Part shown: positions 2,174 to 34,464 of the stretch, piece after piece
How positions within the stretch are numbered: the stretch's first letter is position 1
Layout: each line of letters starts with the position of its first letter
Assembly (NCBI GenBank): GCA_016177845.1
Contig: JACOUO010000011.1
Location: 512,326 to 576,325 of the forward strand
From: Deltaproteobacteria bacterium
GTDB lineage: Bacteria > Desulfobacterota > GWC2-55-46
Length of the DNA: 64,000 nt
Direction: 5' to 3'
Translations under genes and position numbers: made by a program
Notes under the pieces: model-generated
Databases searched by the model: none
The model's input: only the letters and a program-made list of their open reading frames with translations
What the model was told of the DNA's origin: nothing

Positions 2174-3835
2174 TTAACGCTTAAGCTGTGAAAGTTCGGC
2201 AAGAAGCTCATCTGTTGTAGTGATTACCTTTGAGTTAGCCTGGAAGCCTCTCTGGGCAGTGATCATATCAACAAATTCCTGGGCAAGGTCGACATTTGAA
2301 AGCTCAAGGGTGCTTGCCTGTACCAGGCCCCTTCCTGAGCTGCCGGGCGCGCCGATCAAGGGCTGGCCTGAGTCATATGTTTCCTTGTAGAGGTTCATGC
2401 CCGCGCTTGACAGACCTACCGGGCTTGCGAAGTCAGCCAAAAGGACTTGACCGAGCGTAAGGTCCTTTCCGTTTGAGAAAATACCGCTGATAACGCCGTC
2501 CTGGTCAACCCCCATCCTCTGAAGAGTGCCTGATGAGTAACCGTCCTGCGTAAGGGCTGAGATGCCTGAAGTTGTTCCGTACTGTGTTGTGCCGTCAGTG
2601 CCTGTGCCTGCCTGTGCGATACTGTTGCCGAAATCGAATGAGATTATCTGGCTCTGAAGCGCGCCTCCGGTAAAATTAAATCCGCCGTAAGGGTATGTAA
2701 CTCCTGTTTCAGAGTAAAGCGCTCCGCTTGTATTAAAGGATATCGTGCCTTTAGCCTGTATCTCGGTTGCTCCGCTTGTGGTGTCAGTGCCGTCGACTAC
2801 GGCGTACCAGTCCCAGTTATTTCCTACAGAGCCGAGGGAATCCTTCCTGAAGTACAAGGTCACAACATGGTCATTTCCAAGTGAGTCATATACTGTGACA
2901 GGGGTTGAGAAATTCGATGTATCTCCCGCTTTTCCAAGGAAAAAATCACCTGCTGCCACATCGCTTGCATTGCTTGAGCCTGCGGCTATGGCCCCTGAGC
3001 TTACTGCGTTATGCCCGAGAATGGTTGATGCGGTTGAAAGCGGGCTGCTCCAGTCAAGAACAAGCGTTCCGGCGTTGCCGGTGTTATTGGTTACGGAGAA
3101 AAGACCTGTCTGGTCGTCATAACTTACATCATAGGTATCAGTGTTGCCGTTCCTGGCTTCAAGCGCTGACTTAATCGAGGCGGCTATGGAACTTCCTGAA
3201 TATGCGCTGCCTGAAGAAAGGCCTCCGTCAGAGACGAGGCTTGCGTTGAACCATGTCGTGCCGCCGTCTACGCTGAAGTTAATGGCGTCATTTGTCCCTG
3301 ATGTAATAACAAAGCCGGGAATTGAGGCATTCGAGTCAAGGCTTGCGGTAAGCGTTGCGTTTGTTGTGGCATTGGGGGCTATTGTCTTGGTTGTAAGCTG
3401 AAGGTCCTGAACCGTATTCTGGAGGGCCCCTGCGGAATTTGCCATGTAACCCTGAAGCCTTAAGCCTTCGGGATTTGTGATATAGCCGTCCTTGTCTGTT
3501 GTAAACTGGCCTGCCCTTGAATAATATGTTGAATTAAGGACCGGGTCTTTTACCATGTAAAAGCCGCTTCCGCTTATTGCCATGTCAAGGGAGTTACCTG
3601 TTGTCTCAAAGGCCCCCTGGCTGAATATCTTCTGTATGCTGCTCATCTTTACGCCGAGGCCTATCTGATTGGTGCCTGTGCCGCCTGAGAGGGTCTGGCT
3701 CAAGACATCATCAAATATTACCCTGCTGCCTTTAAATCCTACCGTGTTCACATTCGCTATATTGTTGCCTACTACCGAGAGCTTTGACATATTGGCGTTA
3801 AGGCCGCTGATACCTGTGTATAAAGATGACTGCAT
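2174..3835 (-). CDS. flgE: Flagellar hook protein FlgE
   Basis: 553 aa. The N-terminus MQSSLYTGISGLNANMSKLSVVGNNIANVNTVGFK and the C-terminus ...DLAQEFVDMITAQRGFQANSKVITTTDELLAELSQLKR are the conserved rod/hook terminal domains. Confidence 0.9.
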   Translation of the reverse strand: MQSSLYTGISGLNANMSKLSVVGNNIANVNTVGFKGSRVIFDDVLSQTLSGGTGTNQIGLGVKMSSIQKIFSQGAFETTGNSLDMAISGSGFYMVKDPVLNSTYYSRAGQFTTDKDGYITNPEGLRLQGYMANSAGALQNTVQDLQLTTKTIAPNATTNATLTASLDSNASIPGFVITSGTNDAINFSVDGGTTWFNASLVSDGGLSSGSAYSGSSIAASIKSALEARNGNTDTYDVSYDDQTGLFSVTNNTGNAGTLVLDWSSPLSTASTILGHNAVSSGAIAAGSSNASDVAAGDFFLGKAGDTSNFSTPVTVYDSLGNDHVVTLYFRKDSLGSVGNNWDWYAVVDGTDTTSGATEIQAKGTISFNTSGALYSETGVTYPYGGFNFTGGALQSQIISFDFGNSIAQAGTGTDGTTQYGTTSGISALTQDGYSSGTLQRMGVDQDGVISGIFSNGKDLTLGQVLLADFASPVGLSSAGMNLYKETYDSGQPLIGAPGSSGRGLVQASTLELSNVDLAQEFVDMITAQRGFQANSKVITTTDELLAELSQLKR

Positions 3836-3857
3836 GAGATTATATCCTCCTCTATCC

Positions 3858-4505
3858 TTAATAGATTTCTTTTATTTTATCCTGTGTGATTGTCGAGCCG
3901 CCTACAAGTAAGCTGGCTGAGCCTGAATCAAAGCTCACGCTTGAGGCTGTGCCCCTTATGTAGGTCGTTGTATCTACCGCATTATTTACGGAATCTTTTG
4001 CGTTCACGCTGAATGTGTACCTGCCGTTTGCCGCCGGATTACCGCTGAAATCCTTTCCGTCCCATGCTGCCTCATAGTCCCCTTTTTTGCTTGAACCGAG
4101 GTCGATTGAATTTACAAGCTTACCCTTCGGGTCATATACTGATATGGAAAGCGAATCCGCGTCTTCCGCGACCGTGAAAGGCAGATTTACGGGACTGCCT
4201 GAGTAATCAAACTCATTGCCCTCTGCTTTTATGTTCCTGCCTATAAGGTTGGCTGTTGAGTAATTCTGCAGGGAAGTTATGCTTCCTGTAGCTGATTCCA
4301 TTGTAGTATTAAGATTTGTTATGCCTTCAAGCGAACTGAACTGGGCCAACTGAGCTACAAACTGGGTATTATCAGTAGGCTCAAGAGGGTCCTGGTTCTC
4401 AAGCTGGGCTACGAGGAGCTTAAGAAAATCGTCTTTGCCCATGGTCTGGCTTGAGGCCGAACTTGTCAAAGCGCTTGAAGTTGTCGAATTTACGCTGTCT
4501 ATCAT
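3858..4505 (-). CDS. flgD: Flagellar hook capping/assembly protein FlgD
   Basis: 215 aa containing the FlgD motif DFLKLLVAQLENQDPLEPTDNTQFVAQLAQFSSLEG. It lies between fliK and flgE. Confidence 0.8.
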   Translation of the reverse strand: MIDSVNSTTSSALTSSASSQTMGKDDFLKLLVAQLENQDPLEPTDNTQFVAQLAQFSSLEGITNLNTTMESATGSITSLQNYSTANLIGRNIKAEGNEFDYSGSPVNLPFTVAEDADSLSISVYDPKGKLVNSIDLGSSKKGDYEAAWDGKDFSGNPAANGRYTFSVNAKDSVNNAVDTTTYIRGTASSVSFDSGSASLLVGGSTITQDKIKEIY

Positions 4506-4525
4506 CAGATGAACTCCTTTCAGGC

Positions 4526-5962
4526 TTAAATGAAAATGTCCACGCCGTTTTGCAGGCTGCGGTTTACTCCGTACTGCCTTATGTTCTCAGGCTCAATGCC
4601 CGCCTCTTCCTTACCGTAATTGAAAGCGGCCTGTCCTTTAAAGTTCCCTGCCCTCTCCCATTCATTGCCTGATGACCTGTTGTCAGACATCTGAAAGCCC
4701 TGCTGGTTTACTTCGACCGTGTATTTCTCAAGGTTCATCCCGTTCTGGGTGAATATTTCCTTGACCTTCGCAGAGTCAGCCTCAAGAATGGATTTTACTG
4801 AGGCGTTATCGACCATAATCTCGGCCTTTACGATATTCTCCTCAACATTCATCTTTATGCGAAGCTCTCCAAGATGTTCAGGGTGTAGGCTTAACTTCAC
4901 TTCCTTGCCGCTCTGGGCAAGGCTCATCTTAAGCCCCTTGTCAAACTTCTCATATACCTCTGTGCTGACCTCATTTGAATGAATTGCCTGAGACTTAGGC
5001 TGCACTGCTGTAACGGTCTTTTCACCATTGGTATTATTGACTGCGGAAAACGCATCTTTAGGCATTGCGTCAGATGTTTTGGGCTCTGATTTTATCTCTG
5101 TATCGCTGACACTGAATTCAGGCGCCTTCTCATTCATTTTCACGGACTGCTCTGCCTGGGTGGCTGCATTTTCGCCCTGATCAAAAGAAGTCTCTGAATC
5201 TTTATTTTCAGGTGCGCCTGCTATCTTTTTCTCCACAGGCTCTGTTGAAAATTCTTTTGTTTTTACTTCTGTTTCAGTTCCTTTTTTAGAATTGTTTTCA
5301 ACTTTTATCTCAGGCAATTCGACAGCCTGCTCTGAGGCCAACACACTATTTCCAGTTTCTTTAAGCGCTTTGTCTTCACCAGATAAATCTGCTGTAGAAA
5401 GTTCTGTTTTTGTATTCAGGCTAAAGCCTGTTACTTCAGGAATTGGAAACCCTGTAATATCCTCCTGAGGCATATTGGCGGGAGCCTTTAAATCGTTCTC
5501 AGGTTTCATATCAACTCCCTTGAGATCTCCCAAAGGTGTCCTGGAAATTTTTATACTATTATCAATCTGATTTACCGGAGGCAGGAACAGGATAAGGGCG
5601 TTTGCGGTTTCACCTTCGTCGCCTTTTTTATCCTCTGCCTCTGTTCCTGAATCTGCATTAAGCTTTTGCTCTGCCTCAGTCTCTCCCGCAGTCATTTCAG
5701 TCAGAAGAGTGCCTTCGAGAACTGCCTGATTCGTCTTTGTGCCCTGTTTAACTTCATCTTCTGCCGCGGCAGCCTTAAGCGCAATCTCAATGGTTATGCC
5801 GGTTTTCATGCCAGCTTCGGATATCGCATTCCCGATAACATCGGAGAACTTCTCATCAGTGTTGTTTTTAACATTGTTCTCTGAGGTTTTGGCCTCTTTA
5901 GCAGTCTGCGGTTTTGCCGGTTCGAAAAAACTCACTTCCATATCCACCTTCTTTAAAATCAT
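4526..5962 (-). CDS. fliK: Flagellar hook-length control protein FliK (low-complexity, acidic)
   Basis: 478 aa with a Glu/Lys/Thr-rich central region. The conserved C-terminal Flg_hook-like domain reads LSLHPEHLGELRIKMNVEENIVKAEIMVDNASVKSILEADSAKVKEIF. It is located upstream of flgD-flgE. The true start may be the internal M at 5941, which has an AAGGTGG ribosome-binding site. Confidence 0.7.
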   Translation of the reverse strand: MILKKVDMEVSFFEPAKPQTAKEAKTSENNVKNNTDEKFSDVIGNAISEAGMKTGITIEIALKAAAAEDEVKQGTKTNQAVLEGTLLTEMTAGETEAEQKLNADSGTEAEDKKGDEGETANALILFLPPVNQIDNSIKISRTPLGDLKGVDMKPENDLKAPANMPQEDITGFPIPEVTGFSLNTKTELSTADLSGEDKALKETGNSVLASEQAVELPEIKVENNSKKGTETEVKTKEFSTEPVEKKIAGAPENKDSETSFDQGENAATQAEQSVKMNEKAPEFSVSDTEIKSEPKTSDAMPKDAFSAVNNTNGEKTVTAVQPKSQAIHSNEVSTEVYEKFDKGLKMSLAQSGKEVKLSLHPEHLGELRIKMNVEENIVKAEIMVDNASVKSILEADSAKVKEIFTQNGMNLEKYTVEVNQQGFQMSDNRSSGNEWERAGNFKGQAAFNYGKEEAGIEPENIRQYGVNRSLQNGVDIFI

Positions 5963-5987
5963 GTAATACTGTCAGGCATATTAAATA

Positions 5988-6002
5988 GCAATACCCGTGC
6001 CA
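5988..6002 (-). promoter_or_regulatory. Sigma-54 (-24/-12) promoter for fliK-flgD-flgE
   Basis: The minus strand reads cTGGCACgggtaTTGCt, a perfect TGGCAC-N5-TTGC match, 26-40 nt upstream of the fliK start. Confidence 0.55.
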
Positions 6003-6262
6003 AGTCTCCTATTTTGAAATATCTTATATAATCAACTACTTACAAACACCATCATAGACAGAGTGATTCATGGTGTCTTTTCAAGGAAGGCAAAATTTTC
6101 CCCTTCAGAGAAGTTTTTTCCCGTTCTCAGAAATACGGCAGTAACGGTTCAATTTACGGGTGAAGAGCCGAAATAAAATACGGGAATAATTCATCCCCGA
6201 AGAATGCGCTTTGGAAACAAGATTATTTTAAAACTGCTTATTTTGGGGTTTGATAAGGAGGC

Positions 6263-6287
6263 GCAGGGCGCTGGCGGGGCGCCCTGC
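6263..6287. terminator. GC-rich perfect hairpin (9-bp stem, 7-nt loop) downstream of the ylxF-like gene; possible terminator or RNA-stability element
   Basis: gcagggcgc-tggcggg-gcgccctgc. On the minus strand it lacks a following U-tract. On the plus strand it is followed by ttgctttgt. Confidence 0.3.
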
Positions 6288-6325
6288 TTGCTTTGTGGCG
6301 GGTACTGCTGGAGGTAGAGCAACTA

Positions 6326-6868
6326 TCAATTCTTTATCTTCAGGGACTTGCTGAGCTTTACTGATTTATCAAGTTCAACAAGGCCGAGTATCTTTGCTGC
6401 CTTCTTTTCGCTCAGAGATGAGAGGATAAGCACTGCCATATCCTCATCGAGTTTTTCTATCCTTGTTGCCGCCTCTTCAGGGGCCATTGTTCCGTAAATC
6501 TTTACTATCCTCTTGACCCTCTCGTCATTGACTTCGTCAATCTTCTTTGTAAAAGCCTCTATCCTGCCGTGGATTGAATTAAGCTCCGCTATTCTGGAGT
6601 CTATATCGCTCTTTATCACAAGAAGCCTTTCTTCCTTGACCCTCAGTTCCTCTTCCTTTGCGTCAAGCTCCTTCTGCCTTCTGTTTAAAGCAGCAATAAG
6701 GCCTTTCTCGTTTTCAGCCTGCGTATCAGATACCGGCGGCTTTACCTTTACCTCAGCCGGTGTTTCAGCCAAAACAGACTTGGCCTTGAACACATCCCAG
6801 CCAAATGTGAACCATATGGCTATAAGAATCATCTTTACCGCGAAAAGGATTAAAAGCTTGGTTCTCAT
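6326..6868 (-). CDS. Flagellar protein with an MgtE-N-like domain (YlxF/FlbB-like)
   Basis: 180 aa with an N-terminal transmembrane helix and a coiled-coil region, then a C-terminal segment resembling the MgtE intracellular N domain (VKRIVKIYGTMAPEEAATRIEKLDEDMAVLILSSLSEKKAAKIL). Its position after fliJ mirrors the Bacillus fliI-fliJ-ylxF order. Confidence 0.5.
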   Translation of the reverse strand: MRTKLLILFAVKMILIAIWFTFGWDVFKAKSVLAETPAEVKVKPPVSDTQAENEKGLIAALNRRQKELDAKEEELRVKEERLLVIKSDIDSRIAELNSIHGRIEAFTKKIDEVNDERVKRIVKIYGTMAPEEAATRIEKLDEDMAVLILSSLSEKKAAKILGLVELDKSVKLSKSLKIKN

Positions 6869-7311
6869 ACTCCGCTCCGTTTAAACCTGCTTGTCACAAG
6901 GTCGTCGTTTGTCTTCTGCTCTTCCTTGTTAAGTGCGTGGTTATAAATATCGAGGTGTTTTTCCTTTATTACTTCTATAACCTTGGTGCTTTTTGTTGAT
7001 TCAAGAAGCTCTGACCTCTTTTTTTCAAAAGCGGCCCTGACGCTGTTTATGATAATCCCCTGTTGGTCAATATGCCTTTTAAGCCCTGCTATATAATCAT
7101 AATAAAGGTGAAGGTCTTTGACCTCCTCGGACCTTTCTTTCATATCATCGATCTCGTTGCAGGATTTCCTGTGTAAATCCTTAAGGGCCTGTAGCTTTGT
7201 TTCCTCTTCTTCGAGCTTCTTTGAGGCCTCTCCGAATTCCTTCTGACAAAGTTCCTGAAGCCTCTGCCTGTACTCATATAACGGTTCAAGTTTGAAAACG
7301 AATTTATTCAT
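6865..7311 (-). CDS. fliJ: Flagellar export chaperone FliJ
   Basis: 148-aa coiled-coil protein immediately downstream of fliI. Its stop overlaps the start of the next gene. Confidence 0.6.
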   Translation of the reverse strand: MNKFVFKLEPLYEYRQRLQELCQKEFGEASKKLEEEETKLQALKDLHRKSCNEIDDMKERSEEVKDLHLYYDYIAGLKRHIDQQGIIINSVRAAFEKKRSELLESTKSTKVIEVIKEKHLDIYNHALNKEEQKTNDDLVTSRFKRSGV

Positions 7312-7317
7312 ACGGCC

Positions 7318-8643
7318 TTAAACGGGAAGCCCGAAAAGCTGCTGCAGGCTGTCTTCGTAATTTACTCCTTCAGTCACATCCTGTCTTAAAAAACTGTTCA
7401 CCTTATCGATTACCTTTATGGCGTGGTCGACCCTGGGGTCGCTGCCTTCCTTGTAAGCTCCTATGCTGACGATATCATACGCCTTCTTGTATGTTGCAAG
7501 CACTGACCTCAGCTTCATCGCGAACTGCCTGTGCTCAGGCGTCACGATGTCTATCATCACCCTGCTTACGCTTGTGAGTATGTCTATGGCAGGGTAATGG
7601 CCCTGAGCCGCCAAATCCCTTGTAAGCACAATGTGCCCGTCGATTATTGAGCGGACGCAGTCCGCAACAGGGTCGTTCACATCATCGCCTTCAGCGAGTA
7701 TCGTATAAAACCCGGTAATGCTTCCGCTCCCGCTCGAAGTCCCTGCCCTTTCAAGCAGCCTTGGGAGCATCGCAAATACAGAGGGCGGATAACCCTTTGT
7801 CGCGGGAGGCTCTCCTACAGCGAGCCCCACTTCCCTCTGCGCCATCGCAAATCTTGAAATGGAGTCCATCATCAAAAGCACATCACAGCCTATATCCCTG
7901 AAATACTCGGCAATGGCGGTAGCCATCAAGGACGCCCTCATTCTGATAAGCGGGGGCTGGTCTGAAGTTGCCACTATCAGGACAGACCTTTTAAGTCCCT
8001 CTTCGCCAAGGTCTTTCTCTATGAATTCCTTTACTTCCCTGCCGCGCTCTCCGATAAGCGCAATGACATTGACATCGGCTTCAGTGTTCCTTGCCATCAT
8101 GCCCATGAGCACGCTTTTGCCCACGCCGCTGCCTGCGAAGATGCCGACCCTCTGCCCCTTACCGACTGAAAGAACAGAGTTGATTGCCTTTATGCCTACA
8201 TTCAACGGCTTCTCTATCCTCTTGCGTGACAAAGGGCTTGGAGGCGCCGCGTAAAGCGGATATTCCTTTTCCACTTCAACAGGCCCGAGCCCGTCCATAG
8301 GGTTGCCAAGCCCGTCAAGCGTGCGTCCGAGCAGTTTTCTGCCCACTCCCACAGCCGCGCTATTTCTTTTGGCTACAATTTTGCTTCCCGGCCCTATGCC
8401 CCTTACTTCGCCAAGCGGCATAAGCAGTATCTTGTCATCGGCAAACCCCACCACTTCGCACTGAATGGGACTGCCGTTATCCTTCGGGTACACATGGCAG
8501 AACTCTCCGACTGATGCGCCTGGGCCTAAGCCTTCCATAACAAGGCCTACTATCCTTGTTATCCTGCCGTTCACCTTCAGCGGATTGCACTGCTCAACTG
8601 CCTTTGTGTATTTATTTAAAGATACGGCAAGCTCTCTATGCAT
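7318..8643 (-). CDS. fliI: Flagellum-specific ATP synthase FliI
   Basis: 441 aa with Walker A GSGVGKSVL and a Walker B motif. It is an F1/T3SS-type ATPase with the N-terminal FliI domain. Confidence 0.95.
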   Translation of the reverse strand: MHRELAVSLNKYTKAVEQCNPLKVNGRITRIVGLVMEGLGPGASVGEFCHVYPKDNGSPIQCEVVGFADDKILLMPLGEVRGIGPGSKIVAKRNSAAVGVGRKLLGRTLDGLGNPMDGLGPVEVEKEYPLYAAPPSPLSRKRIEKPLNVGIKAINSVLSVGKGQRVGIFAGSGVGKSVLMGMMARNTEADVNVIALIGERGREVKEFIEKDLGEEGLKRSVLIVATSDQPPLIRMRASLMATAIAEYFRDIGCDVLLMMDSISRFAMAQREVGLAVGEPPATKGYPPSVFAMLPRLLERAGTSSGSGSITGFYTILAEGDDVNDPVADCVRSIIDGHIVLTRDLAAQGHYPAIDILTSVSRVMIDIVTPEHRQFAMKLRSVLATYKKAYDIVSIGAYKEGSDPRVDHAIKVIDKVNSFLRQDVTEGVNYEDSLQQLFGLPV

Positions 8644-29038: not shown

Positions 29039-30751
29039 TCAACCGCATGTTACCCTGTTTACCTCTTTGAGCGTCGTTTTTCCGTTTAAGGCATTATCAA
29101 TGGCCTTAAGCCTTAAAGAGTTCATGCTGCTTTCAGTCACTTTCCTTTTAAGATTCGATATATTATTGGCGGCTATAGCCTCCCTTATCTCTTCGTCCAG
29201 TTCAAGAAGCTCGATTATCGCCTTTCTCCCGCGGTAGCCTGTATTGCTGCACTTCCTGCAGCCCTTTCCCTCATAGAAGGTCTTACCTGAATACTCCTTT
29301 TTATCGAGCCCCGCTTCAATAAGCTCTGCCTCGGTTATCTTAAGAGGAGCCTTGCATTCATCACAGATAATCCTTATGAGCCTCTGTGAAAGTATGCAGT
29401 TAAGCGATGAGGCAAAATTATACGGGTCAACCCCCATATGTATGAACCTTCCGATGGCATCAAAGATATTATTGGCCCGTGCTGTCGTAAAGAGGGCATG
29501 GCCGCTTATGGCGGTATTTACTGCAAGCTGGGCTGTTTCAGGGTCGCGTATCTCCCCTACCATTATCTTATCAGGGTCATGCCTTAAAATGGAATTAAGC
29601 CCGCTTGCAAATGTAATCCCCTTCTTGTCATCCACATGTACCTGAACCGCGCCTTTAAGCTCATACTCCACAGGGTCTTCGATTGTAAGTATCTTATGCT
29701 CGCCGCTGTTTATCTCGGAAAGCGCTGCGTAAAGGGTTGTAGTCTTTCCGCTTCCGGCGGGCCCTGTCACCAAAGTCATTCCATACGGCTCCCAGACCTG
29801 CCTTCTGAATACAGCCAGTTCATCATCATTAAAGCCCAAAAGGTCCAGCCTGAACTCATTGGAATCCCCCGTAATATGACCTTTATCAAGTATCCTTACT
29901 ACGGCATCCTCTCCGTTTAACGCAGGGATGATAGATACCCTGAAGTCAATATTTTTATCCCTGAGCCTTAGTTTAAACCTTCCGTTCTGAGGTATTTTCT
30001 TCTCAGCTATGTCAAGCTCGCCTATCACCTTAAGTCTTGAGATTATCACCTGCTGAAATCTCTTCTCAACAGGCTCAACCATCCTGTGCAGCACTCCGTC
30101 TATCCTGTATTTGACTATAAGCCCGTCACGCGCTGATTCGAGGTGAATGTCGCTCGCCCTCTTTGAGACAGCATCATAGATTATCTTGTCAATGAGCCTT
30201 GCCGCAGGGCTTGAGCCTTCGGTTATCTTCTCAAGGGCGACTTCCTCCTGCTCTTCAGCCTCCCTCAAGACCTCCAGCCGCAGGTTCTCCGCAGTCTCTT
30301 CCATTCTTTCAAATCTGCTGCTTTGCACAAGCAGCCTTTCAATGGCGCTTTCAGGGGCGACTATAACTGTGCCTGGTGTCTGCCCCTTCTCCTCTATTAT
30401 CCTGCCGATGCTGTCGAGAGCCATTATGTTGGTGGGGTCTGAGGTTGCTATATAAGATACACCCTTCCTCTTTACGGGAACTACCCTTGATTTATGGAGC
30501 AGTTCAACCGGAATAAGCCTTAGCACCGCTTGATCGACCTCGGTTTCATCAGGCTTCATCACTTCCAGCCCGTATTGCTCGGCTATCCCTATGGCGAATT
30601 GGTTCTCATCTATAAAGCCGAGCCGCATGCAGGATTCTCCGAACCTGACTGAACTCTGCCTCGAATACTTCAGGGCCTCATATATCTGCTCAGGCTTGAT
30701 AAAATTTTTCTCAAGGAGAATATCGCCTAATTTATTCAGACCAAATATCAT
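29039..30751 (-). CDS. Type II secretion/type IV pilus assembly ATPase (GspE/PilB family)
   Basis: 570 aa. Has an N-terminal GSPII_E_N-like domain, Walker A GPAGSGKTT and a tetracysteine motif (CDECK...CRKCSNTG). Confidence 0.85.
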   Translation of the reverse strand: MIFGLNKLGDILLEKNFIKPEQIYEALKYSRQSSVRFGESCMRLGFIDENQFAIGIAEQYGLEVMKPDETEVDQAVLRLIPVELLHKSRVVPVKRKGVSYIATSDPTNIMALDSIGRIIEEKGQTPGTVIVAPESAIERLLVQSSRFERMEETAENLRLEVLREAEEQEEVALEKITEGSSPAARLIDKIIYDAVSKRASDIHLESARDGLIVKYRIDGVLHRMVEPVEKRFQQVIISRLKVIGELDIAEKKIPQNGRFKLRLRDKNIDFRVSIIPALNGEDAVVRILDKGHITGDSNEFRLDLLGFNDDELAVFRRQVWEPYGMTLVTGPAGSGKTTTLYAALSEINSGEHKILTIEDPVEYELKGAVQVHVDDKKGITFASGLNSILRHDPDKIMVGEIRDPETAQLAVNTAISGHALFTTARANNIFDAIGRFIHMGVDPYNFASSLNCILSQRLIRIICDECKAPLKITEAELIEAGLDKKEYSGKTFYEGKGCRKCSNTGYRGRKAIIELLELDEEIREAIAANNISNLKRKVTESSMNSLRLKAIDNALNGKTTLKEVNRVTCG

Positions 30752-30872
30752 GTCATTACCTTCCGAATGTCATTATATATCTTTTCGGCATAATTCAATA
30801 TTCTATTAGAATTAATTACTTTTTGCAATGTGGTTGATAATATTGAGTTTTTTAGGATTAAATTGATAGGGG

Positions 30873-30906
30873 AATAAAAAAGCCAACCGGGAAACCCTGA
30901 TTGGCT
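30873..30906 (-). terminator. Rho-independent terminator downstream of tRNA-Gly
   Basis: On the minus strand: AAAAAATCAA-agccaa-tcagggtttcccgg-ttggct-TTTTTATT. Confidence 0.45.
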
Positions 30907-30917
30907 TTGATTTTTTA

Positions 30918-30991
30918 TGGAGCGGGCGATGGGAATCGAACCCACGTCTAAAGCTTGGGAAGCTTTCATTCTACCATTGAACTACGCCCGC
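30918..30991 (-). tRNA. tRNA-Gly (anticodon CCC)
   Basis: The reverse complement reads GCGGGCGTAGTTCAATGGTAGAATGAAAGCTTCCCAAGCTTTAGACGTGGGTTCGATTCCCATCGCCCGCTCCA. This shows a cloverleaf, a 7-nt anticodon loop TTCCCAA, and an encoded CCA end. Confidence 0.9.
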
Positions 30992-31082
30992 AAGTTAGAT
31001 AATAAAATACCTAAAAAAAAATATTAGTCAAGTCCAAATGTAACCCTAAACACAATAGCAAAGGGAAGTTAATTCATTTTTG

Positions 31083-32768
31083 CTAGAGTATTAATTCTTC
31101 AATTTCAATAGGTGTAAACTCTTTATCTTTTGGAAGTTTTCCAAGAATTTGATTAACAAATTTAAATATTGGCATCGATTTACTTCTTTCCATATTCTTT
31201 GCAAACTCAAATGCTGATAAAGGTTTTCCTTTACTTTGGTCGTATATATAATTATGAGCTTGTTCAAAATTCCTTATGTGTACATATCTATGCGACAGCC
31301 CCGAACTGAAATTGTTCGCCAATACAACTCTATCCCATATTGATTGATTTAATTCCCAAGCACTATTCTTTCGAGGCGAACCATCTTTATTAAAAATAGT
31401 TTTTCCAGTAGAATCTTCTAAATAACGATCATCGCCATCATGGATTATATGTTGGCGAATTCGAAAGTGAGTAAGAATTTCCTGAAAAAATGGAATATTA
31501 TTTTTCGACCCTGTATTAAGAACAAATATGTCGGCAGTTGGTTCAATTTCCTCTAATAGCTCACGGACTACAATCGCCTCTGTATCGCCTTCTACCAAAA
31601 TAACATCATCAGAGAAAAATATTTCACACAGATGAGGATTAAACCTATTATTCATTTGAACCATTTTCTTACGCTCATCATTTATACCAAAAAGATTATC
31701 TCCGGCTTGGTAAACTGATATCCTGCGCGCCTCTCTTTGCAATCTAGCTAATGATGTATGGGGTTTGGAAAGATCTATAAGAGCAGGACTATGGGAAGCA
31801 CAAAGCACTTGAAATGGAGATTTATAACAAAGATTATATAAAGAGTTTTTAAGAAGAGAAATTGTTTTTGGATGTAAATAAATTTCAGGTTCTTCAAATA
31901 AAATAATAAAATCTTTACGAGCATCCTCAATGGTTTCTTTTACTAAGCCAAGAAAATTGAACATAGCCTGCCTTATTACTCCGCTACCTTGAGACAGTAT
32001 ATCTTGCTCAATCTCATTAAAATGTCCGTCTTTAATTGTTACTGCATATTCTTTTTCAAGTGACTTTAACAAATCAAATTTATCTTCATCAACGGGTTTG
32101 ATTGACATTTCTAATTCTGGAAATATTTTTTTAAAATTTTCATTTGCTTGATCTTCTATTTTTTTCAGCTTATCTGAAGAAACCAAATTTTCTTTAAGTT
32201 CTTTATATCTTTGCTGAAAATTTTTGCAAAAATTTTCTTCTTCATCCGAAAGTTTTTTAAGAACTGTTTTCTTTATTGTCTCACTAACAAATTTTGATAG
32301 ATCCTCTAGATTGGGCATTGCTGGAATTACAATAGGAGTTGGTGCGTGTTTTTTAAAATGTGACTCAAATCCTCCAAATCCATCTTCCAAAAAACGATTT
32401 ATAGTTGGATCATATGTACTTTTTTGACCTTCCGAATCAGTATCAACCCAAACTTTATTAAATTTAATTAAACCAGTACTATTTACCCATTTATTTAAAC
32501 CTTTTTCTTCGAATTCTTTTTCATCTCCGGTTTCTTTTTGAAAAATTGCCTCAATTTCAATAGGATTTTTCTTTGAGTATCCATGAAAATCATTTAAAGT
32601 TGCTTTCTGTTTTGGTTTAACTAGGTATTCATATGCTGTAAGTACTGTAGATTTACAAGCATTATTTTTACCAATAAGAAAAATGATATCTGAATTTAAA
32701 AATGAAATGGATACAGAAGTTGCGCCAATTCCTCGAAAATTCTTTACAGCAATTTCAACAAGCCTCAT
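31083..32768 (-). CDS. OLD-family ATP-dependent nuclease (N-terminal ABC/AAA_15-type ATPase plus C-terminal Toprim); candidate anti-phage defence protein
   Basis: 561 aa. P-loop LIGKNNACKST near the N-terminus. C-terminal Toprim signatures are LVEGDTE (Glu) and IIHDGDD (DxD). GC content is about 33% against about 50% in flanking genes. It is adjacent to tRNA-Gly. Confidence 0.8.
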   Translation of the reverse strand: MRLVEIAVKNFRGIGATSVSISFLNSDIIFLIGKNNACKSTVLTAYEYLVKPKQKATLNDFHGYSKKNPIEIEAIFQKETGDEKEFEEKGLNKWVNSTGLIKFNKVWVDTDSEGQKSTYDPTINRFLEDGFGGFESHFKKHAPTPIVIPAMPNLEDLSKFVSETIKKTVLKKLSDEEENFCKNFQQRYKELKENLVSSDKLKKIEDQANENFKKIFPELEMSIKPVDEDKFDLLKSLEKEYAVTIKDGHFNEIEQDILSQGSGVIRQAMFNFLGLVKETIEDARKDFIILFEEPEIYLHPKTISLLKNSLYNLCYKSPFQVLCASHSPALIDLSKPHTSLARLQREARRISVYQAGDNLFGINDERKKMVQMNNRFNPHLCEIFFSDDVILVEGDTEAIVVRELLEEIEPTADIFVLNTGSKNNIPFFQEILTHFRIRQHIIHDGDDRYLEDSTGKTIFNKDGSPRKNSAWELNQSIWDRVVLANNFSSGLSHRYVHIRNFEQAHNYIYDQSKGKPLSAFEFAKNMERSKSMPIFKFVNQILGKLPKDKEFTPIEIEELIL

Positions 32769-32899
32769 AAGATTTGCCCTTCTCTAATTTAATTATAAGT
32801 AAAAAATGAATGAAAATATTAATAACATCTTGAAGACAAAAAACAAAGTTAAAATTTATGAGCGACTAAGAATTTTCATAATTCCTTTATCCCCCTGCC

Positions 32900-32928
32900 T
32901 TGCGCGGTTATATGCCCTCTGATATACT
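32900..32928 (+). promoter_or_regulatory. Putative sigma-70 promoter for the 8-gene plus-strand operon
   Basis: TTGCGC-(17 nt)-TATACT, about 45 nt upstream of the aldehyde dehydrogenase ATG. A GGAGG ribosome-binding site precedes the ATG. Confidence 0.35.
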
Positions 32929-32973
32929 TTTTGGGGTATTCATATCAAAAAAATACAATCACAGGAGGGGTTT

Positions 32974-34464
32974 ATGGCGGTCATTAAGAACCTGATAAAC
33001 GGCAAATGGGTGGAGTCCGCATCAGGCAAGACCCTTAATAGCATCAACCCCGCGAATATAGATGAGGTTGTCGGAGTAGTGCCTGCCTCTTCCCGGCCTG
33101 ATGTGGATAAGGCGGTCGAGGCCGCACGGAACGCCTTTGAGAAATGGCGGCTAACCCCAGCCCCCAAAAGAGGCGAAATCCTCTTCAGGGCGGCTGAACT
33201 CATATCAAAGAACAAGGAAGAGCTTGGAAGGCTCGTTACAAGAGAGATGGGCAAGGTACTGCCCGAAGGGCTTGGCGATGTGCAGGAAGCAATCGACATG
33301 GCCTACTACATGGCAGGCGAAGGCAGGAGGCTTTCAGGTGAGACCGTACCTTCCGAACTGCCCTTTAAAGACTGCAAATCTGTCCGTGTTCCTATCGGCG
33401 TATTCGCCCTTATCACCCCCTGGAACTTCCCCACGGCAATTCCCGCGTGGAAGCTCTTTCCAGCCCTCATCAGCGGCAATACCGTAGTTTTCAAGCCTTC
33501 AAGCTATACCCCTGTAGCAGCAACAAGGCTTGTAGAACTGATAGTAGAGGCAGGCATCCCCGAAGGCGTATTGAACCTTATCCACGGGGCAGGAGAAGAG
33601 ATAGGAGAGTACCTTGCCACCCATCCGGGAATAGACGGGGTATCTTTCACAGGCTCAACAGCCGTGGGAGAAAAACTGGCCAAACTCTGCGGAGGGCTTG
33701 ATAAAGAGATATCATGCGAGATGGGCGGCAAAAACCCGATAATCGTCATGGAAGACGCAAAGCTTGACCTTGCCGTTGAGGGCGCAATCTGGGGAGGGTT
33801 TGGCACTACAGGGCAGAGGTGCACAGCCGCAAGCAGGCTCATAGTGCATGAAAAAATACATGATAAATTCCTTGAGATGTTCATCTCAGCCGCAAAGGGC
33901 TTAAAGCTTGGTGACGGGCTTAAGAGCGATACAAAGGTCGGCCCTGTGATAAATGAATCACAGATGAAGAAAGTCCTTGGCTATATCGAAATAGGCAAAA
34001 AAGAAGGCGCAAAGCTCACCCTCGGAGGAAGCGCCCGAACAGAAGGCGGATTAAAGAAAGGCTACTTTATCGAGCCTACCATCTTTACCGAGGTAAAGCC
34101 AAAGATGAGGGTAGCGCAGGAAGAGATATTCGGCCCGGTTGTCTCCATCATAAAGGCAAGAGACATATCAGATGCGATAAATATTGCCAATGGTATCCCG
34201 TACGGGCTCTCATCATCCATATATGCCCAGGATGTGAACTATACCGCTATCGCCGAAAGGGACCTTGACGCAGGCATCGTCTACATCAACGCCCCGACCA
34301 TAGGCGCAGAGATACAGCTCCCCTTCGGAGGGACGAAAAAGAGCGGGCTTGGGCGGAAAGAGGCAGGAGGAAGGGGCGGAGCCCTTGATATGTTCACAAA
34401 ATGGAAGGTAATCTACAGGGACTACAGCGGAAGGCTTCAAAAAGCGCAGATAGATAAAGAGTGA
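32974..34464 (+). CDS. NAD(P)-dependent aldehyde dehydrogenase (ALDH superfamily; semialdehyde or P5C dehydrogenase-like)
   Basis: 496 aa. Contains the catalytic Cys in GQRCTA, the Glu in EMGGKNP and a Rossmann motif GSTAVG. Confidence 0.9.
   Translation: MAVIKNLINGKWVESASGKTLNSINPANIDEVVGVVPASSRPDVDKAVEAARNAFEKWRLTPAPKRGEILFRAAELISKNKEELGRLVTREMGKVLPEGLGDVQEAIDMAYYMAGEGRRLSGETVPSELPFKDCKSVRVPIGVFALITPWNFPTAIPAWKLFPALISGNTVVFKPSSYTPVAATRLVELIVEAGIPEGVLNLIHGAGEEIGEYLATHPGIDGVSFTGSTAVGEKLAKLCGGLDKEISCEMGGKNPIIVMEDAKLDLAVEGAIWGGFGTTGQRCTAASRLIVHEKIHDKFLEMFISAAKGLKLGDGLKSDTKVGPVINESQMKKVLGYIEIGKKEGAKLTLGGSARTEGGLKKGYFIEPTIFTEVKPKMRVAQEEIFGPVVSIIKARDISDAINIANGIPYGLSSSIYAQDVNYTAIAERDLDAGIVYINAPTIGAEIQLPFGGTKKSGLGRKEAGGRGGALDMFTKWKVIYRDYSGRLQKAQIDKE

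Follow-up and report, generated by a model that had tools for sequence, protein, structure and literature searches.

A stand-alone class 1 OLD-family gene in a variable tRNA-Gly/ALDH spacer of an uncultured deltaproteobacterial lineage

Gene content and composition of the locus

The window considered here is a stretch of 64 kb (64,000 nucleotides) from a Deltaproteobacteria bacterium (assembly GCA_016177845.1, contig JACOUO010000011.1, positions 512,326 to 576,325 of the forward strand); all coordinates given below count from its first letter. The gene of interest (31083..32768, minus strand) starts with ATG and encodes a class 1 OLD-family ATPase-Toprim nuclease of 561 amino acids (aa), identified as an open reading frame (ORF) and by means of PADLOC, Pfam, BLASTP and Foldseek. 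The identical entry in the protein database is annotated as 'MAG: AAA family ATPase [Deltaproteobacteria bacterium]' (MAG—metagenome-assembled genome). The gene is located between tRNA-Gly(CCC) (30918..30991, minus strand; ARAGORN, Rfam tRNA 71.9 bits) and a gene encoding an aldehyde dehydrogenase (ALDH). The OLD gene and the tRNA are encoded on the same strand, 91 nt separating the OLD stop codon from the tRNA; the OLD gene lies 5' of the tRNA, on its promoter side, not at its 3' end. An initial annotation of the window, made from the sequence alone, had described the region as a low-GC islet next to a tRNA carrying a solitary OLD-family gene, a candidate for single-gene anti-phage defence; the ORF and the motifs quoted there lie exactly where it had placed them.

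As judged by their Pfam domains, the neighbouring genes comprise an SLT transglycosylase, two proteins without Pfam match, a T2SSE/MshEN ATPase and the tRNA on one side, and ALDH, rubrerythrin, a zinc-ribbon protein, a class III aminotransferase and a PAP2/PMT membrane protein on the other. The OLD ORF has a G+C content (GC) of 0.311 and a GC at third codon positions (GC3) of 0.189, compared to 0.46-0.52 and 0.51-0.59, respectively, for the six surrounding genes. The overall GC of the window is 47%, and the islet formed by the OLD gene constitutes its most compositionally atypical 2 kb. The segments of 1686 nt with the lowest GC of the 64 kb fall within the islet (0.308; mean 0.470, standard deviation 0.030), as does the peak of tetranucleotide divergence (Kullback-Leibler divergence, KL, 0.225; mean 0.039, standard deviation 0.023). 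This atypicality is far beyond chance, and it bears out both the contrast in GC on which the initial annotation had relied and the k-mer atypicality that it had proposed to check.

Family assignment and catalytic residues

The assignment of the encoded protein to the OLD family is essentially certain. The PADLOC model PDLC02358 ('Old') matches aa 1-504 over model positions 2-500 of 578 (2.6e-71, 239 bits), with the best AriA and GajA models reaching 88 and 82 bits, respectively. Four Pfam families match above their curated cut-offs: AAA_15 (aa 1-331, 3.7e-24), OLD-like_TOPRIM (PF20469, aa 384-446, 7.4e-15), DUF2813 (aa 1-367, 5.7e-14) and AAA_21 (1.5e-11). The initial annotation had named the lack of an OLD or Toprim profile match as a reason to discard its proposal, and such matches are present and strong. 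Over its full length the protein is also covered by the PHROGs family phrog_4747 (1.2e-69), a family of unknown function. A BLASTP comparison with P2 Old gives 24% identity over aa 1-446 (8e-28) and aligns P2 residues K37, D299, H306 and H332 with K39, E292, H299 and H326 of the window protein, and P2 residues E398, E402, D453 and D455 with E393, E397, D444 and D446. All eight P2 residues are essential in vivo according to mutagenesis (PMC7049728).

Structural comparisons lead to the same family. In a profile search of the PDB, based on 112 homologs, the class 1 OLD of Thermus scotoductus (Ts OLD, 6P74) ranks first (1.9e-27, 99 bits), followed by structures of GajA (approximately 4e-14, 55 bits). 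An AlphaFold2 model built from the alignment of the same 112 homologs has a mean predicted local distance difference test score (pLDDT) of 81 and a predicted template modelling (TM) score (pTM) of 0.78, with pLDDT above 88 for aa 1-130 and above 90 in the Toprim domain; the low-confidence part comprises helices at aa 154-215 and continues to aa 258 (pLDDT below 50 for aa 176-258). The top PDB match of this model in Foldseek is again 6p74 (571 columns, full length, E 1.5e-19, TM 0.59/0.64), with GajA and the OLD protein of retron-Eco8 as runners-up.

Following the domain layout of Ts OLD (PMC7049728), the protein consists of an N-terminal ABC-type ATPase region (about aa 1-370; 31659..32768, minus strand; AAA_15, DUF2813 and AlphaFold2 model) and a C-terminal Toprim nuclease domain (about aa 384-510; 31239..31619, minus strand; PF20469, residue conservation and AlphaFold2 model). 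A helical insert at about aa 154-258, where the model is of low confidence, is probably the OLD dimerisation domain. The ATPase region harbours the Walker A motif or P-loop GKNNACKST (aa 33-41; 32646..32672, minus strand), as read from the translation, whose Lys K39 aligns with P2 K37; a Walker B motif with adjoining D-loop, IILFEEPEIYLHP (aa 288-300; 31869..31907, minus strand), which also aligns with the stretch IIEEPEMYLHP of Ts OLD; and the H-loop CASHSP (aa 323-328; 31785..31802, minus strand). The Toprim domain contains the motif VEGDTE with E393 and E397 (31578..31592, minus strand), part of LVEGDTE at aa 391-397, and D444-x-D446 (31431..31439, minus strand), part of IIHDGDD at aa 441-447. 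The protein therefore combines an N-terminal ABC ATPase possessing Walker A Lys, Walker B acid, D-loop His and H-loop His with a C-terminal Toprim possessing the catalytic Glu and the DxD metal-binding motif, as is characteristic of the OLD family. Across 120 homologs, K39, E292/E293, H299, H326, E393, E397, D444 and D446 are invariant, and so are E502 and K515 beyond the Toprim DxD. Of 127 alignment columns with a consensus of at least 93%, the window protein deviates in only one (position 38), the median per homolog likewise being one, which argues for purifying selection.

A solitary gene in a subfamily of solitary genes

Class 1 OLD proteins are defined by a stand-alone gene (PMC10568477, PMC7049728). 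The layout at the locus is of this kind, with tRNA-Gly and the T2SSE ATPase downstream of the OLD gene and ALDH upstream. The Pfam domains of the flanking genes include no helicase, reverse transcriptase (RT) or AriB-like protein; a search with Rfam at E up to 1 for a retron or other structured RNA near the OLD gene returned only the tRNA, and no credible small ORF that might encode a partner is seen in either intergenic piece of the islet. The window gene is a class 1 OLD and shows those features of the class that can be tested.

Three partnered systems were considered and rejected. For Gabija (GajA/GajB), a helicase is missing among the flanking genes and GajA models score at most 82 bits, compared to 239 bits for 'Old', in agreement with the initial annotation, which had set Gabija aside for want of a UvrD-like partner. 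A fused AriAB of PARIS matches only aa 280-436 (2.6e-12), the Toprim domain is that of PF20469, and a second gene is not present; DUF4435 is not among the Pfam matches of the protein, and the likeness to fused AriA-AriB proteins drawn in the initial annotation does not stand. The effector of retron-Eco8 is likewise dismissed, with 45 bits in the NCBIfam model retron_eff_Eco8 (cut-off 250 bits) and neither RT nor retron RNA at the locus.

Hundreds of homologs with 43-62% identity are found in Bacillota, Bacteroidota, Vibrio, Aeromonas, Planctomycetota and others. Identity to the nearest homolog amounts to only 61%, and no ortholog-level match is present elsewhere in the protein database. Six homologs from five phyla (individual homologs are denoted by P and a number) were viewed within their contigs. 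P0002 is found beside a restriction gene of DpnII/MboI type; P0010 is part of an island with genes for AbiJ, HNH, AAA_15, DUF4365 and a resolvase; P0100 (Desulfoluna) is accompanied by integrase, IS91, rve transposase and group II intron genes; P0057 (V. cholerae) is inserted as a single gene, with ackA on one side and an iron ABC transporter on the other; P0038 (Flavobacterium) is surrounded by genes for Abi_alpha, RelA/SpoT, patatin and a resolvase; and P0013 (Metabacillus) adjoins an integrase. A neighbouring helicase, RT or AriB is absent in all six cases, and solitude thus characterises the subfamily.

Some homologs deviate in their domain composition. P0112 (859 aa) carries an additional PF00145 C5 cytosine DNA methylase domain, and P0049 (650 aa, Vibrio rotiferianus) has a Cys-rich C-terminal extension with CxxC motifs.

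Insertion into the spacer between tRNA-Gly and ALDH

ALDH-anchored loci were compared from 80 species-representative genomes with an ALDH protein identity of 58-85%, most of which are groundwater 'Deltaproteobacteria' and Nitrospirota MAGs (loci are denoted by L and a number). The order ALDH, rubrerythrin, zinc ribbon, aminotransferase and PAP2/PMT is conserved in many of the 80 loci, and of the 21 loci in which tRNAs were sought, 15 have tRNA-Gly(CCC) beside ALDH. In L006, L013, L014 and L024 the tRNA beside ALDH is identical in sequence to that of the window. An OLD homolog is present at none of the 80 loci, as the acquisition proposed in the initial annotation would predict. The spacer between tRNA and ALDH measures 1982 bp in the window (GC 0.308), compared to 306-750 bp (GC 0.40-0.55) in the 'empty' sister spacers. 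Because the gene is absent at 80 loci, 'empty' spacers exist and others harbour different cargo, the OLD gene is a lineage-specific insertion into a variable tRNA-Gly/ALDH hotspot.

The maximal extent of the inserted DNA is 1877 bp (31040..32916), the minimal extent being the ORF alone. It is bounded by two motifs that are common to 'empty' sister spacers, and consists of the OLD gene together with approximately 40 nt downstream and approximately 150 nt upstream. The left boundary motif (31026-31039), 35-48 nt upstream of the tRNA, is conserved in L004, L014 and L015 and overlaps a tRNA promoter-like site. The right boundary motif, CTCTGATATACTTTTT (32917..32932, plus strand), is native to the site and located approximately 45 nt upstream of the ALDH start; it has exact equivalents (matches of 12-15 nt) in L004, L006, L013, L014 and L015, the remainder of the spacers being unalignable, and is probably the -10 region of the ALDH promoter or an operator. 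Since the alignment of the window with sister spacers yields only these two short collinear motifs, the boundaries are to be read as intervals, not as exact junctions. A 27-mer from the ALDH start gave no match in JGI metagenomes that would represent an empty site at population level, and presence and absence refer to the level of species.

The tRNA is an ancestral neighbour of ALDH and lies outside the insert. Adjacency to a tRNA, which the initial annotation had taken as a hallmark of transfer, is therefore real, but not by itself evidence of integrase-mediated insertion: an identical tRNA is found beside ALDH in sisters without OLD, the promoter motif of the tRNA has been kept, and there is no integration scar. 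The neighbouring genes in the window include no integrase, and the surroundings of the islet, searched for att-like direct repeats and for a second copy of the tRNA 3' end, gave only short repeats at chance level. A tRNA-targeted integrative island was rejected as an explanation, the insert being located on the 5' side of the tRNA beyond the promoter motif, with neither integrase nor flanking repeat. We infer that insertion probably proceeded by recombination through the conserved flanks, neither integrase nor repeats being present.

Other genes are found in the same spacer in sister genomes. L003 harbours a PAS-GGDEF-EAL protein (5336-7483, minus strand), and L007 MotA/MotB-like genes (5661-7359, plus strand). 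The spacer of L010 contains a gene for a protein of 1345 aa (3361-7398, plus strand) with the P-loop GDPGSGKTH and no match in Pfam or PADLOC, possibly an unannotated STAND-like defence gene. In L007, L010, L017, L025, L026 and L040 the tRNA-Gly(CCC) is inverted relative to ALDH, with its 3' end toward the spacer, which suggests repeated rearrangement at this site. On the 3' side of the tRNA, the window carries the gene of a GspE/PilB-like ATPase (29039..30751, minus strand; T2SSE 2.7e-116, together with MshEN) of native GC (0.473). Sister loci lack this gene as well (in L024 the tRNA directly follows a gene of 213 aa), so that lineage-specific genes adjoin the tRNA on either side.

A composition similar to that of the window gene recurs among its homologs. 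The subfamily members in L087 (10001-11740) and L088 (8001-9725), which belong to Desulfoluna and Vibrio cholerae, have a GC of 0.33-0.34 and a GC3 of 0.23-0.25 in genomes with a GC of about 0.48, and hence mirror the window. The closest phage relative (L094, 4001-5699; 30% identity) is found in Rhizobium phage RHph_Y3_56_1 beside a phage integrase. It is annotated as two coding sequences, an ATPase (4001-5230) and a Toprim (5232-5699), and may represent a split OLD or a frameshift.

Putative expression signals

The region upstream of the OLD gene (32769..32916, minus strand) is AT-rich (GC 0.24-0.38) and, as read from the sequence, would have been brought in together with the gene. It contains a perfect -10 hexamer, TATAAT (32792..32797, minus strand), read by eye and without a recognisable -35, as well as the Shine-Dalgarno-like sequence GAGAAGGG (32777..32784, minus strand) 8 nt before the ATG. 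A consensus scan of this upstream region for sigma-70 promoters gave no 9-of-12 match, and the OLD promoter is putative. The same type of scan reveals a tRNA promoter-like site in the interval between the OLD stop codon and the tRNA (31004..31031, minus strand; TTGACT, 16 nt, TATTTT). Just past the tRNA, a hairpin resembling an intrinsic terminator is followed by the U-run UUUUUUAUU (30873..30908, minus strand; fold -16.4 kcal/mol, z = -3.26). A terminator scan from 30600 to 33100 found nothing besides this hairpin, and hence none between OLD and tRNA, such that the hairpin would end both the OLD and the tRNA transcripts.

The Walker A cysteine

The single deviation from the highly conserved columns concerns position 38, directly before the Walker A Lys, where the window protein has Cys (codon TGT, 32655..32657, minus strand) and most of the family Gly. 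This Gly is strictly required in the PROSITE P-loop pattern, and replacement of the equivalent residue in Ras (G15A) reportedly cripples nucleotide binding. Two independent Logan assemblies of this gene give an identical protein sequence, including Cys38. Among the 120 homologs, Gly is found in 112, Cys in 3 and Thr in 3, with 2 truncated entries missing the position; the initial annotation was right to call the residue unusual. The non-Gly sequences fall into two groups. The first consists of the window protein and P0002, whose nearest relative P0003 (72% identical) has Gly; the second is a clean clade of four members with mutual identities of 72-77%, of which P0113 has Cys and P0115, P0116 and P0119 have Thr. 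A second deviation is Ser at His262 of the signature-like motif GHGVIRQ, the His being present in 111 of 120 homologs (92%).

The substitution has appeared in at least two lineages whose proteins are otherwise well conserved, and is thus not a sign of decay; the Walker A Cys is real, rare, recurrent and stably inherited. The same recurrence means that Gly to Cys or Thr has been tolerated or favoured by selection. We note that all six non-Gly sequences also carry Lys34 (GK...), which is found in only 16 of 120 homologs and probably reflects common ancestry.

It is conceivable, though rather unlikely, that Cys or Thr at this position marks natural class 1 OLD variants with a re-tuned ATPase switch. 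Weaker nucleotide binding could then lower the activation threshold, or the P-loop thiol could couple activation to redox state or covalent modification. Such re-tuning is possible within the OLD family, since the Walker A mutant K35A of E. coli YbjD/OldB keeps its anti-phage phenotypes with raised toxicity (PMC13261556).

Relation to characterised OLD systems

A role of class 1 OLD proteins in defence is documented (PMC12392090, PMC12445682, PMC13261556, bioRxiv 10.64898/2026.07.10.737580). P2 OLD is an ATP-stimulated tRNase that cleaves tRNA-Thr(UGU) in both strands of its anticodon stem; its activation follows from compromised RecBCD or from single-stranded DNA hairpins of the lambda origin (PMC12445682; bioRxiv 10.64898/2026.07.10.737580). 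The OLD of V. cholerae (Vc OLD) is a DNA nickase that blocks replication of ICP1 in a RecBCD-independent manner and depends on Walker A, Walker B and DxD (PMC12392090). For YbjD, the ATPase domain alone suffices and Toprim is dispensable (PMC13261556).

The window gene shares with P2 Old (P13520 / NP_046798) the stand-alone organisation and, over aa 1-446, the same two-domain architecture. The two differ in the C-terminal stretch of approximately 115 aa of the window protein, which has no BLAST alignment; in the P-loop, GYNNAGKS in P2, and the Walker B residue, Asp in P2, compared to Cys38 and Glu292 in the window protein; and in location, P2 Old being prophage-borne and the window gene chromosomal without prophage context. 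The trigger and the tRNA-Thr UGU substrate of P2 Old are not transferable by assumption (PMC12445682). Vc OLD (HAS2513945.1) is likewise a solitary bacterial class 1 OLD on acquired DNA and acts by abortive infection (PMC12392090); its catalytic residues are, by published numbering, K48, D313 and D468/D470, compared to K39, E292 and D444/D446 in the window protein, and the V. cholerae homolog of the window protein, P0057 (51% identical), is found at a different locus without DarTG. Ts OLD (6P74) is the best match in both sequence profile and fold and shares the Walker B Glu and the D-loop His, but identity in the structural alignment is only 18%, and Ts OLD itself is without demonstrated defence role. 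E. coli YbjD/OldB resembles the window gene in its DUF2813 match above cut-off and as a solitary chromosomal gene among unrelated genes; it is, however, conserved in E. coli and its Toprim domain is dispensable, whereas the window gene is foreign DNA of recent arrival in which the Toprim site is kept in full. The OLD proteins of the other classes, GajA (class 2), retron-Eco8 OLD (class 3) and AriA/AriB (class 4), share the ABC ATPase, the Toprim superfamily and the fold. Their partners (GajB helicase, RT and non-coding RNA, and a separate AriB, respectively) are absent at the window, and the respective models score far below 'Old'.

Proposed mode of action and alternative explanations

Taken jointly, identity as a class 1 OLD and a role in conflict or defence are highly probable for the window gene. 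Anti-phage function, trigger, substrate and oligomeric state of the protein are here proposed by analogy with the characterised systems. The N-terminal ABC-type ATPase, probably with its helical dimerisation insert, would act as sensor or regulator, and the C-terminal two-metal Toprim nuclease as effector. As in characterised class 1 proteins, the protein may be held inactive until it meets a cue of infection, for example a phage protein or phage DNA that is aberrant or replicating, upon which ATP binding or hydrolysis would license the Toprim site for cutting of nucleic acid. Possible targets are host tRNA, as for P2 OLD, or DNA to be nicked, as for Vc OLD; in either case phage replication would be stopped by abortive infection. 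Since all catalytic residues of ATPase and Toprim are kept, a nuclease-dependent mode appears likely. The gene arrived by horizontal transfer, as a one-gene cassette of approximately 1.7-1.9 kb with its own AT-rich upstream region.

Several observations weigh against this interpretation. The near-invariant second Gly of Walker A is replaced by Cys, which could weaken nucleotide binding, and Ser takes the place of the 92%-conserved His in the signature-like GHG motif; a consensus promoter was not detected upstream of the gene. Close copies on phages or plasmids were not found, the best matches having 37% (IMG/VR), 30% (INPHARED) and 30% (PLSDB) identity. The characterised class 1 proteins share at most approximately 24% identity with the window protein, their substrates vary and so does their dependence on the ATPase, and the archaeal OLD-family protein Cran1 acts in the cell cycle and not in defence (PMC12796447).

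The first of these points invite the explanation that the gene is a decaying or ATP-binding-defective copy, a silent passenger whose ATPase is inactivated by Gly38Cys and His262Ser. Both changes affect positions that are otherwise conserved (Gly38 in 112 and His262 in 111 of 120 homologs), mutation of Walker A or Walker B abolishes the function of P2 OLD and Vc OLD (PMC7049728, PMC12392090), and the scan found no consensus promoter. However, the ORF is intact, and the protein is off in no more conserved columns (1 of 127) than the median homolog. Residues other than Gly are found in at least two lineages, one of them the four-member clade with 72-77% identity, which indicates stable inheritance under selection; Walker A Lys, Walker B, D-loop, H-loop and all Toprim residues are retained, and YbjD/OldB K35A still gives anti-phage phenotypes (PMC13261556). 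We consider decay improbable. A housekeeping role or a role in DNA metabolism, in repair or in a Cran1-like control of the cell cycle, would find a precedent in Cran1 (PMC12796447) and some room in the unknown role of Ts OLD, the flanks of the window gene are housekeeping genes, and the V. cholerae homolog is also found among metabolic genes. A housekeeping gene would not be expected to be missing at all 80 sister loci, to lack any ortholog-level match in the database and to show foreign composition, nor to be scattered across phyla with homologs in neighbourhoods of Abi, restriction and integrase genes, and this explanation is quite improbable. Because of its absence in sisters, foreign composition, patchy distribution and the neighbourhoods of its homologs, the gene is better regarded as an accessory conflict gene than as part of a core function.

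The remaining alternative, an orphaned component of Gabija (GajA), PARIS (AriA/AriB) or retron Eco8 that is inactive or repurposed after loss of its partner, draws on significant partial matches to the GajA, AriA and retron-Eco8 models and on the structures of GajA and Eco8 OLD, which follow closely behind Ts OLD in the fold search. The 'Old' model is nevertheless ahead by approximately 150 bits, Eco8 attains 45 bits with a cut-off of 250 bits, and the PDB profile gives 99 bits for Ts OLD compared to 55 bits for GajA. Solitude does not result from local loss, as all six homologs are without partner, and Rfam gives no retron RNA at E up to 1. Orphanhood is therefore highly improbable, and a solitary class 1 OLD with a role in defence is the interpretation we prefer.

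Implications for the OLD family

The window gene is a P2-Old-like stand-alone OLD of a scattered, uncharacterised subfamily, and a pipeline for defence annotation would already flag it. Single-gene defence by solitary class 1 OLD genes has been described before (PMC10568477, PMC12392090), albeit as a rare type, reported from 0.45% of genomes (PMC12392090). No concept is changed by the window gene, whose sole unusual detail is the P-loop Cys. Only three class 1 OLD proteins have been characterised, and their behaviours all differ (tRNase, DNA nickase and a protein that requires only its ATPase domain). To these the locus adds a cleanly delimited natural example from an uncultured deltaproteobacterial lineage, a one-gene cassette in a variable tRNA-ALDH spacer. 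The subfamily to which it belongs, phrog_4747, is broad and uncharacterised, with 45-62% identity across at least five phyla, and the non-canonical P-loop constitutes a natural variant for probing the ATP gating of OLD nucleases.

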